This document shows, one piece after another, positions 5,556 to 6,959 of a stretch of 64,000 nucleotides of DNA; position 1 is the stretch's first letter; the number at the start of each line of letters is the position of its first letter. A program made the position numbers and the translations under genes. The notes below the pieces were generated by a model. The model was not told the DNA's origin and did not search any database. It saw only the letters and a list, made by a program, of their open reading frames with translations. This DNA is from Escherichia phage vB_EcoM_IME392, in the sequence record MH719082.1. One strand, 5' to 3'.

Positions 5556-5590
5556 CCTTAACAGCCTTTTAGGTCATCAAACAGGAGGAG
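5556..5590 (-). promoter_or_regulatory. Conserved bipartite intergenic motif, copy 3 (degenerate downstream block, overlaps the BCCT stop codon)
   Basis: CCTTAACAGCCTTTTaggtcatcAAACAGGAGGAG; the second block lies in the last codons of the BCCT gene. Confidence 0.3.
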
Positions 5591-6959
5591 TTTCCTTAGC
5601 CAAGAATACTTTAGGTACAAAGATCTTGAGGAACCCGAATAGAATACACAATACCCCAATCAGTACCGGAACAGCCGATACAGCTACCAGAGTCTTCGTT
5701 ACAGTTACTACGTCACCACCTGCCCAGTTAAGTGCAGCAGCAACTACACCCATGCTTACAATCCAGAATACACGAGTTCTAGGAGCGGTCATGGACTCTA
5801 CCGTAATACCTGCTGAGTCATGACCTGTAATAAAGAACAGAATCACAGACACGAGGGTAATTACTGAGAATATCCATCCGCCTGGGAAATTAGCCAGAAG
5901 CTGGAAGATATCCTGAGCACCATGTTGCAAACCGGCTACACCGAATACGGTAAACCATACGTTACTGATAATGGTAGGGAACAGTACACATCCCAGGATC
6001 AGTTCGCGAATAGTACGGCCGTAAGAGATACGTGCCACAAACGCTCCGACGAATAATGCCCAACCTACCCAGGCTGCATAGTAAGCATAAGGCCAGCTAG
6101 CCAGCCATTGCTTCTCTTCAGCAGTACTGCCAATGTTTACCGACATAGGAATAATCTGGAGCAGATAGCTGCCAGAATAGGTGATGGTCTTCCAGAGGTA
6201 TTCAAAGAATGTACCACTTACAGCAACGAATGCCATAATAGATAGAGCTACGATTACATTATATCTGGATAACCACTTAACCCCACGATCGACACCAGTT
6301 ACGGCACTAAGTACAGTGCCCAGAGTCAGGAGTGCGATAATGGTGTAAGGACCAACATCCACACCAAGGAACTCTTTAAATCCAGAACTGATCGGGCCTA
6401 CTGCGTAGACGAACGACAGGGTTAAGCCTATGATGGTCGAGAAGAGTAAGCTTATCGTATTAAGGTTATTCAGAGTTCGGGACTTGAATAACTGATTAAG
6501 CGGACGGTCTTCACCACGTACATGCAGTAAGTACCCGAATGCCACCCCTACGACTGCATACACAGCCCATGCATTAAGTCCCCAGTCAAAGAAGGTAGTT
6601 ACCATATTCTGACGTTCGGACATACCCTCCTGATGATGGTACATAGGTTCGAGTACGCCATAATAAATCATGGATACACCCATACCGGTACTAAACATCA
6701 TAGAGTAATAGGTAAAGCGATTGTATTTCGGAGTACCTTTACCCAGCTTAATGTTACCATGTTTGCTGAATACAAAGAATGCCAGGAACGCCAGGAAGAT
6801 CAGCGAAGACCAGGTAAATATGAATCCATACTGAGATATAAATACAGACTTACTCCAGTCCATTACAGCACCAAACTGGGTGGGAGCAAACATAATGGCG
6901 AGTACAATACCCACCGTTACCAGCACCGTCCCCCAGGTAACTACCTTTGAATCGGACAT
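5577..6959 (-). CDS. BCCT-family (betaine/carnitine/choline-type) secondary transporter, polytopic membrane protein
   Basis: 460 aa, about 12 hydrophobic segments. Carries the BCCT signature region [55 protein letters not shown] (cf. BetP/CaiT W-x-FYWAWW-x-W-x-PF-x-G-x-F-x-ARIS-x-GRTIRE) and [23 protein letters not shown] RBS before ATG 6959. Confidence 0.8.
   Translation of the reverse strand: [460 protein letters not shown]

Follow-up and report, generated by a model that had tools for sequence, protein, structure and literature searches.

What a virulent phage gains from a polytopic solute transporter is the question raised by the stretch of DNA analysed here, a window of 64,000 nucleotides from Escherichia phage vB_EcoM_IME392 (sequence record MH719082.1). 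On its minus strand, at 5577..6959, lies a gene for a 460-residue secondary transporter of the BCCT family (AXY86083.1). The gene is intact and under strong selective constraint; it stands 3 nt from a gene whose product is predicted to be an ATP-grasp ligase, and the two recur together, in several phage lineages, within clusters for the hypermodification of thymidine via 5-hydroxymethyl-deoxyuridine (5-hmdU). The reading that we favour, with a probability of about one half, is that the transporter imports an onium compound and that the ligase couples this compound to hypermodified DNA. Protein identities, the fold of the partner, selection, synteny and transcription signals are shown by the analysis; the parts that we infer are the substrate class, the direction of transport, use of the imported compound by the ligase and DNA as the acceptor.

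The seven proteins that the block encodes are identical in sequence to AXY86079-AXY86085 of IME392, whose genome is 116,460 bp. The window belongs to a myovirus genome with a leftward arm (1-29 kb) of DNA-metabolism genes and a rightward arm of structural genes, and the transporter gene is in the former, in agreement with the original prediction, made from the letters of the window, which had placed it in the early region. In GenBank the protein is labelled 'putative Bcct family transporter', and the presence of the gene, as a bare observation, is not new; every neighbour in the block is labelled 'hypothetical protein'. Apparently undescribed are the ATP-grasp identity of the partner, the recurrent pairing of importer and ligase, their embedding in a 5-hmdU cluster and a related operon in Vibrio phages (see below). 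Literature searches, which did not take in Hu et al. 2021 (Arch Virol 166:2505) and Iyer et al. 2013, returned nothing relevant on phage BCCTs or on ATP-grasp enzymes in hypermodification clusters.

The sole close relative among 50,697 phage records, a collection that does not include the IME392 record itself, is phage EP_H11 (92.6% nucleotide identity); both phages come from sewage or farm sources. A search of 5,426 complete E. coli genomes found the transporter gene in none of them, and a host origin or a prophage state was rejected.

The transporter and its substrate pocket

The open reading frame (ORF) runs uninterrupted from an ATG start to its stop codon, with a GAGGA Shine-Dalgarno sequence 8 nt upstream and a GC content of 45.6%, compared with 45.3% for the window. 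The product matches the Pfam BCCT profile (PF02028) with an E-value of 1e-92 and 311.6 bits against a cutoff of 27, over profile positions 1-481 of 485. A phmmer search of the PDB finds BetP, the glycine-betaine transporter of Corynebacterium glutamicum (E=3e-48, 34% identity over 437 residues), with residues 10-447 of the phage protein aligned to BetP 66-544, that is, from transmembrane segment TM1 to TM12. Hydropathy gives 10 clear transmembrane segments, and 12 when the glycine-rich TM3 and the tryptophan-rich TM8 are counted; the 12-TM core is colinear with that of BetP. By these sequence criteria the ORF is a genuine, intact, full-length BCCT-family transporter. The family and the roughly 12 segments proposed in the original prediction are both borne out, as is the alignment to BetP that it had suggested as a check, which extends over the full length of the core.

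With BetP, BetT, OpuD and CaiT (TC 2.A.15) the phage protein shares the family, the 12-TM core, the aromatic pocket of TM4 and TM8, a GMG stretch and the RISxGRTIRE motif. Unlike these classical BCCTs it is reduced to a minimal core, some 100-200 residues shorter and free of N- or C-terminal regulatory domains: the C-terminal osmosensor domain is missing, the periplasmic loops are shortened and the chain ends about 13 residues past TM12. It differs from them also in being coupled to a ligase and encoded by a virulent phage. The 35-residue stretch that had been cited as the BCCT signature is indeed present, at residues 289-323 in the TM8 region, in a degenerate form: four positions deviate from the classical PROSITE pattern [GSDN]-W-T-[LIVM]-x-[FY]-W-x-W-W, with changes that include T to P, W to Y and W to A, and the protein does not match the pattern as such.

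The betaine pocket of BetP is formed by W189, W194, Y197 and W374, together with W377; these residues are kept in transporters of trimethylammonium compounds and are typically missing from ectoine transporters (bioRxiv 10.1101/2020.05.29.123752). The corresponding residues of the phage protein, W126, W131, Y134, W297 and W300, are identical to those of BetP and invariant in 12 phage and related sequences. From the retention of the pocket, a methylated-onium head group can reasonably be inferred for the substrate. Three narrower assignments were considered and found unsupported. The homologous gene of EP_H11 is annotated as 'high-affinity choline uptake protein BetT', a label that is unsupported, the score with the BetT model being under its cutoff and the architecture of about 675 residues with a C-terminal extension being absent. 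An osmoregulated glycine-betaine transporter of the BetP/OpuD type is not supported, the score being under the cutoff, the C-terminal osmosensor missing and the glycine stretch reading GMGVS and not GMGIG. The score with the equivalog model of the CaiT carnitine/gamma-butyrobetaine antiporter is under its cutoff as well.

Polytopic transporters had been called rare in virulent phages, and the survey agrees. Among the 50,697 phage records, clear phage genomes with a BCCT gene are limited to EP_H11 and two Vibrio phages, a count that leaves out several faecal contigs named 'Bacteriophage sp.'; most of the remaining matches look like bacterial contigs filed as phage. Scans of IMG/VR with the BCCT sequence and with a BCCT alignment found no member of the clade, and the 22 BCCT loci present there are all at most 31% identical to the phage transporter and lie mostly at the ends of prophage calls.

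The closest relatives of the transporter are three near phage variants, followed by a small clade of short BCCTs (37-44% identity), after which identity drops to 33%. The short bacterial proteins (P0005 and P0006, the latter from Zobellella aerophila) and the phage proteins form one clade with 97.5% bootstrap support; they are alike in their short architecture and in having a small residue in place of BetP W373, and the bacterial genes differ in having no ATP-grasp or PIG-L neighbour. The Zobellella protein (40% identity) is the closest bacterial relative with an informative context, and sits in a catabolic locus for carnitine and other quaternary amines. Within the clade a bootstrap value of 95% supports monophyly of the phage BCCTs, which have in common an 11-residue TM10 motif found in phages alone, with TGHDSAG where the bacterial short BCCTs have TSADSAG; monophyly and motif indicate what was probably one old capture followed by retention.

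Contigs with relatives of the transporter-ligase pair (L007, L009, L010, L014, L015, L016, L017 and L040) provide further comparisons. The IME392 and L009 BCCTs have 89% amino-acid identity, compared with 61-76% for six other genes of the block, topoisomerase II A included, and the ratio of nonsynonymous to synonymous substitutions (dN/dS) for the BCCT is 0.03-0.05. The phage BCCT is thus strongly constrained and is the most conserved protein of the block. Absence or disruption of the ORF in close relatives, which would have told against the original prediction, was not seen: the gene is present and conserved in EP_H11 and L009.

The ATP-grasp partner and the two-gene unit

Directly upstream of the transporter gene, at 6963..7871 on the minus strand, is a gene for a protein of 302 residues (AXY86084.1); 3 nt separate its stop codon from the start of the BCCT gene. 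The protein has no sequence or profile match in Pfam, PHROGs, NCBIfam or the PDB, and a Pfam search at E<=10 over all ATP-grasp family members yields noise only. Its modelled structure does have the ATP-grasp fold, and an independent BFVD model of the identical protein agrees with it (TM-score 0.97). The top structural neighbours are small-molecule L-amino-acid ligases, Ddl/VanA, PylC and DcsG, and the protein-modifying RimK and TTL. Across 10 sequences no variation is seen at K95, K140, E256, E270 and R274, and hardly any at N272; going by spacing, these positions may correspond to the catalytic residues of Ddl, the ATP/Mg residues of the superfamily being two Lys and an acidic...E-x-N set. 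On the predicted fold, the partner is an orphan ATP-grasp carboxylate ligase. An exhaustive profile search finds only 7 representatives of its family among 1.84 billion proteins, and a scan with the ATP-grasp alignment finds no member in IMG/VR; such rarity argues that the protein is not a general housekeeping enzyme. Two public annotations are corrected by these results, the BetT label in EP_H11 and the 'hypothetical protein' upstream of the transporter, which now reads as an ATP-grasp ligase.

The ligase and transporter genes lie between a promoter-like motif and a terminator-like hairpin. A 16-nt early-region motif (AAGGCTGTTAGGTTGT), a putative phage promoter or regulatory site, is present on the minus strand at 7894..7909, 23 nt before the start codon of the ATP-grasp gene. 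The BCCT gene is followed immediately by a strong hairpin (11 bp, 7 of them GC) with a run of T after it (5515..5541, minus strand), and a second copy of the motif, at 5553..5568 on the same strand, lies between the BCCT stop codon and the PIG-L gene. In the window the motif (AAGGCTGTTARGKTGT) has 14 copies, against 0.07 expected, all of them on the minus strand, intergenic and in the early arm (1678-29183): 1693-1678, 3829-3814, 5568-5553, 7909-7894, 8750-8735, 12100-12085, 18128-18113, 23335-23320, 25786-25771, 27313-27298, 27496-27481, 27554-27539, 28159-28144 and 29183-29168. The copies stand mostly some 22-60 nt upstream of start codons and are not sigma-70-like; the motif is probably a phage-specific early or middle promoter or regulatory site. 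The motif upstream and the hairpin with its T-run downstream mark the ligase and BCCT genes as a two-gene unit, a putative bicistron.

The same arrangement, with the ligase gene followed directly by the BCCT gene, is found in IME392 and EP_H11; in L009 and L040 (ligase 71-72% identical); in L007 (SRR34064821; ligase 30%, BCCT 43% and PIG-L 46% identical); in L014 (SRR30869050; ligase 30%, BCCT 42-44%); and in L010, where the ligase is 37% identical and the N-terminus of the BCCT is recognized by Pfam at 1e-18. Between the four phage lineages with a BCCT after the ligase, the BCCTs are 41-48% identical. L015 and L016 are short contigs that end before the next gene can be identified, and are uninformative for the pairing. 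In L017 (SRR14039628; 204-1785), a contig too short to be called phage or bacterial, the most divergent ligase of the set is followed after 1 nt by a transporter of the MFS (Sugar_tr, 3e-37) and no BCCT is present. A ProP-like label for this MFS protein is unsupported, its best match being the aromatic-acid/H+ symporter subfamily, under the cutoff. The next gene after the ligase is thus a transporter wherever it can be identified, and the MFS protein in the place of the BCCT implies that the importer function is retained and that the type of importer can change.

The surroundings of the pair are also related between lineages. The order in IME392 is methyltransferase-like ORF, ATP-grasp ligase, BCCT, PIG-L, 344-residue protein, 359-residue protein, 5-hmdU DNA kinase (5-HMUDK), thymidylate-kinase-like (TK-like) protein and thymidylate-synthase (TS) homologue. 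The transporter had been placed between a de-N-acetylase and a methyltransferase; the PIG-L de-N-acetylase does flank it on one side, and on the other the ligase adjoins it, with the methyltransferase-like ORF one gene further upstream. In IME392, EP_H11, L009 and L040 the pair is located between topoisomerase II and the run of PIG-L, 344, 359, 5-HMUDK, TK-like and TS-like genes. In L014 it is located between TS-like and HD genes on one side and, on the other, GT4, cupin, cytidylyltransferase, amino-acid:DNA transferase (PF18724, 3e-8), HMUD2 and HMUDK genes. PIG-L adjoins the pair in two lineages, the L007 protein (46% identical, as given above) occupying the same position as that of IME392. 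In two recent papers EP_H11 and IME392 are listed with other phages for which hypermodified thymidine is predicted, and a transporter is mentioned in neither.

A proposed role for the pair, and alternatives

On the reading we favour, the BCCT would be a functional, constitutive (non-osmosensing) importer of a methylated onium compound of the choline, glycine-betaine, carnitine or gamma-butyrobetaine type, expressed early with the carboxylate ligase from the two-gene transcript, and it would feed the ligase a substrate that E. coli cannot reliably provide. PIG-L would first unmask an amine by de-N-acetylation, and the ligase, at the expense of ATP, would then couple the imported compound to an acceptor that the products of adjacent genes would supply. 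The likeliest acceptor would be a side chain on 5-hmdU, built by the TS-like hydroxymethylase, the 5-hmdU DNA kinase and the putative glycosyltransferases, and the outcome would be thymidines that carry a permanently charged quaternary-ammonium group. The link to DNA as the acceptor comes from the gene neighbourhood. In its most specific form, in which IME392-like phages contain a novel hypermodified thymidine with a betaine-, carnitine- or choline-derived quaternary-ammonium group, self-imported via the BCCT and attached by the ATP-grasp enzyme, the proposal is tentative and, by our estimate, less likely than not.

The order of steps would follow that of mycothiol (MshB/MshC) and bacillithiol (BshB/BshC) synthesis, where a PIG-L/LmbE deacetylase bares the amine of glucosamine and an ATP-dependent ligase then acylates it. 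IME392 likewise has PIG-L and an ATP-dependent ligase close together; MshC and BshC, unlike the IME392 ligase, are not ATP-grasp enzymes, and the NCBIfam BshB score in IME392 is 25 against a cutoff of 182. The pathways of phages ViI, M6, SP10, PhiW-14 and PaMx11 similarly combine a TS-like protein, in those phages a hydroxymethylase, with a 5-hmdU DNA kinase and tailoring enzymes clustered in the early region (Lee et al. 2018, 2022; PMC8989533); the terms transporter, ATP-grasp, deacetylase and PIG-L have no occurrence in the 2022 paper (PMC8989533).

A second association of a phage BCCT with attaching enzymes is seen in the Vibrio phages 1.031.O (MG592415; L011 5824-8822) and 150E35-1 (OX241562; L012 4827-7828), marine phages of about 150-160 kb that each contain an operon of three overlapping genes. 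These encode a fusion of cytidylyltransferase and choline kinase, a BCCT (1e-45, labelled 'TMhelix containing protein') and LicD, and by its predicted products the operon is a complete lic-like pathway for choline-type decoration, with the BCCT in the importer slot. No description of it was found in the literature searched. A 366-residue protein of these phages was considered as a possible relative of the ATP-grasp ligase; hmmsearch and blastp were negative, and the protein is the cytidylyltransferase/choline-kinase fusion. The logic common to IME392 and the lic pathway (LicB, LicA, LicC, LicD) is a dedicated choline-type importer encoded with activating and attaching enzymes. In contrast to that pathway, the window contains no homologue of choline kinase, cytidylyltransferase or LicD, and activation would be by an ATP-grasp acyl phosphate and not by a CDP-alcohol; of the lic-type enzymes L014 has the cytidylyltransferase only. 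The Vibrio and IME392 BCCTs are 25% identical, and the Vibrio protein, in contrast to that of IME392, keeps the full tryptophan prism.

There is a precedent for a phage importer of what may be an outside precursor for DNA base modification, namely the homologues of the preQ0 transporter YhhQ in some 7-deazaguanine phages; Hutinet et al. 2019 (PMC6884629) found that they were not tied to any particular group of phages. The IME392 importer differs from these in its transporter family, in the modified base (T and not G), in the chemistry and in being tightly operonic. The YhhQ precedent, the Vibrio operon, the quaternary-amine locus of Zobellella and the monophyly of the phage BCCTs are counted in favour of the proposed role. 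The original prediction had suggested import of a quaternary-amine precursor for modification; this is favoured by the synteny, the ligase pairing, the aromatic box and the Vibrio lic BCCT, and a specific substrate is not assignable.

Several observations weigh against the proposal. In the phage transporter BetP W373, which is part of the TM8 tryptophan prism (bioRxiv 2022.06.02.493408), is replaced by Ala, W371 by Tyr and G153 by Ser. The Na+ sites are only partly kept: at Na2, S468 is replaced by Gly, followed by a phage-specific His, and at Na1' T250 is replaced by Leu. With prism and Na+ sites degenerate, the substrate is perhaps not a classical betaine. No curated NCBIfam substrate class is reached, every equivalog cutoff being missed widely: the best match is the glycine-betaine model NF047988 (244 bits, cutoff 650), followed by the generic 'bcct' model TIGR00842 (232.1 bits, cutoff 407.55), which points to a divergent subfamily, by BetT NF007399 (155 bits, cutoff 695) and by CaiT NF002887 (104 bits, cutoff 541), the lowest of the BCCT models. 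The glycosyltransferase assignments, needed for a DNA-linked N-acetylglucosamine (GlcNAc) as the PIG-L substrate, are weak. A tblastn search with the amino-acid:DNA transferase (aGPT-Pplase/ADDT) of L014 finds nothing in the window or in EP_H11, and L014, as far as it is sequenced, has no PIG-L gene. In L007 the trio of ligase, BCCT and PIG-L stands beside topoisomerase and TS-like genes, and no 5-HMUDK is visible on the 15-kb contig. A phage would run a risk with a DNA modification that hinged on a compound from the environment, and where early genes are packed densely, their neighbourhood suggests a link and does not prove it.

The acceptor might instead be something other than DNA, such as an envelope glycan, a lipid-linked GlcNAc or a protein, or the module of importer, ligase and deacetylase might make a free small molecule, for instance a dipeptide-like inhibitor, with its proximity to DNA-modification genes incidental. 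Characterized PIG-L members act on GlcNAc-containing small molecules and lipids and not on DNA, the structural neighbours of the ligase are small-molecule ligases and the protein-modifying RimK and TTL, the LicD of the Vibrio analogue classically decorates surface glycans, and the lack of a recognizable amino-acid:DNA transferase in IME392 and EP_H11 points the same way. We nevertheless regard a non-DNA acceptor as unlikely, if well worth keeping in view: the pair is found inside thymidine-hypermodification clusters in independent lineages, most clearly in L014, the leftward early arm otherwise contains DNA-metabolism genes, and no envelope-targeting genes (flippase, Wzy or Gtr-like) are seen nearby. 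A different possibility, raised as the alternative in the original prediction, is that the gene alters the osmolyte physiology of the host. It would then be a stand-alone auxiliary metabolic gene, unrelated to the enzymes beside it, that raises the level of a compatible solute (betaine, choline or carnitine) in the infected cell, to sustain turgor and metabolism in the high-osmolarity gut or as a means of nutrient gain. E. coli already has ProP, ProU and BetT, and the transporter gene is coupled across phage lineages to a rare ligase, which in L017 is accompanied by another transporter. The constancy of the ligase partner and the missing osmosensor domain thus weaken this alternative; loss of the osmosensor tail, on the other hand, would give constitutive uptake. 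Uptake of osmoprotectants is the classical role of BCCTs (bioRxiv 10.1101/2020.05.29.123752), the glycine-betaine model is the best NCBIfam match, and the sewage or farm origin of the phages fits. All osmoprotectant equivalog cutoffs are missed, however, and conservation of the BCCT exceeds that of topoisomerase II, more than would be expected of a fitness gene that the phage can do without; osmoprotection is, in our judgement, improbable.

Least probable, and by our estimate very much so, is that the protein works outwards or in exchange, as CaiT does, or that it perturbs the membrane or excludes superinfecting phages. CaiT is a Na+-independent antiporter, and the partial degeneration of the Na+-site residues, as in CaiT, and the phage-specific His beside the Na2 site would suit such a role. 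Strict conservation of the substrate-pocket residues argues against it, as does the CaiT model, which scores worst of the BCCT models, and coupling to a cytoplasmic ATP-dependent ligase fits inward transport best.

To our knowledge, the thymidine hypermodification pathways described so far all use intracellular amino acids or polyamines. If import of an onium compound for attachment to DNA is correct, this would be the first DNA modification to use a building block that a secondary transporter of the phage scavenges from outside the cell. An ATP-grasp enzyme would also be a first for DNA base hypermodification, and would add acyl-phosphate ligation to the DNA-tailoring toolbox. Viral DNA chemistry would be tied to surrounding metabolites such as the choline, betaine and carnitine of the gut. 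DNA with a permanent positive charge would become possible, which would matter for packaging, for escape from restriction and for artefacts in sequencing. Since both IME392 and EP_H11 are E. coli phages in culture, the proposal is directly testable.

Neighbouring genes and other features of the window

The genes of the block are all on the minus strand. PIG-L, a predicted zinc de-N-acetylase of the PIG-L/LmbE family (4879..5490, 203 residues), matches Pfam PF02585 at 6.7e-14 (52.9 bits, cutoff 28.2) and has the PHHDDE and HQDH motifs. The 344-residue orphan (3838..4872), which is kept in EP_H11, L009 and L040, has no match in Pfam, PHROGs, NCBIfam or PDB searches; GT-A-like motifs (VAFIIPTYHR, FVDDDV) are visible by eye, and no tool gave support for an assignment as a GT-A glycosyltransferase. 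The 359-residue orphan (2711..3790) is probably a GT-B glycosyltransferase distantly like the T4 DNA beta-glucosyltransferase, from evidence that is weak throughout: a BLASTP match to the T4 enzyme of 25% identity over 211 residues (E=0.009), an hhalign probability of 42% (E=2.6e-4) and a Pfam Glyco_trans_1_2 match (E=0.023) over the same region. Sequence and profile searches of the PDB gave nothing for this protein, as for the 344-residue one. A possible third glycosyltransferase of the early arm is a 263-residue ORF at 24349-25140, with a weak DXD glycosyltransferase match (Gly_transf_sug, 5.5e-4).

The 5-hmdU DNA kinase (1740..2711, 323 residues) matches Pfam PF18723 over its full length at 3.2e-35, and is 32% identical to that of Ralstonia phage RP13, where it lies beside the RP13 ADDT homologue, and 26-27% identical to those of ViI-like phages. 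A recent report (bioRxiv 10.1101/2025.03.26.645540) describes 5-HMUDK as undetectable in this phage group and aGPT-Pplase/ADDT as present in EP_H11 and IME392. The profile match contradicts it on the first point, a 5-HMUDK being recognizable in IME392, and the reported aGPT-Pplase/ADDT was not recovered here. The following gene (928..1662, 244 residues) encodes an AAA_28/thymidylate-kinase-like P-loop protein, probably a (hydroxymethyl-)dUMP kinase (phrog_2107, 1.2e-11), whose homologues in L007, L009 and L014 are AAA_28 proteins. The TS homologue (1..931; EP_H11 WBU87640.1) is cut by the start of the window and is probably a dUMP hydroxymethylase; the match of the truncated ORF (PF00303, 3.1e-12) fits a hydroxymethylase and a methylase alike.

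On the other side of the pair, the 246-residue ORF at 7973..8713 resembles class-I S-adenosylmethionine-dependent methyltransferases, with matches to four Pfam methyltransferase families at E-values from 4e-5 to 1e-3, all under their cutoffs, and a UbiG-like match at 1.4e-5. It is a variable accessory gene: the L009 block lacks it, and so do the L040, L007 and L014 contigs as far as they are sequenced. Where IME392 and EP_H11 have this one ORF between topoisomerase II A and the ATP-grasp ligase, L009 (3674-7578) and L040 (3-2838) have 5-6 ORFs, among them a phosphatidylserine-decarboxylase-like (pyruvoyl) enzyme (2e-7) and a weak DXD glycosyltransferase, suggesting a variable tailoring cassette and a final modification that may differ between relatives. 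Between the BCCT and the DNA transferase, L014 (8184-12795) has a cupin/mannose-6-phosphate-isomerase-like gene, a cytidylyltransferase of 148 residues and a weakly myo-inositol-1-phosphate-synthase-like gene, which hints at a CDP-activated sugar or polyol in the modification of that lineage.

Elsewhere in the early arm, a 921-residue ORF (13374-16139) joins an N-terminal metallophosphoesterase of the Mre11/SbcD type to an ATPase of the Rad50/SbcC type and is apparently a fused, SbcCD-like nuclease, and a 160-residue ORF (28330-28812) belongs to the YpsA/SLOG family (7.7e-7). Two tRNA genes are located on the minus strand, for tRNA-Met (CAT) at 26105-26180 and tRNA-Arg (TCT) at 26650-26725. 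In the tail module, a 952-residue ORF (43944-46802) has a C-terminal lysozyme/endolysin-like domain (phrog_181, 2.4e-39) and is probably a tail-associated lysin or a tape-measure fusion. Finally, the topoisomerase II A gene of L007 (9312-11708) is split by an intein with an HNH endonuclease domain, giving a product of 798 residues compared with 415 in the window.

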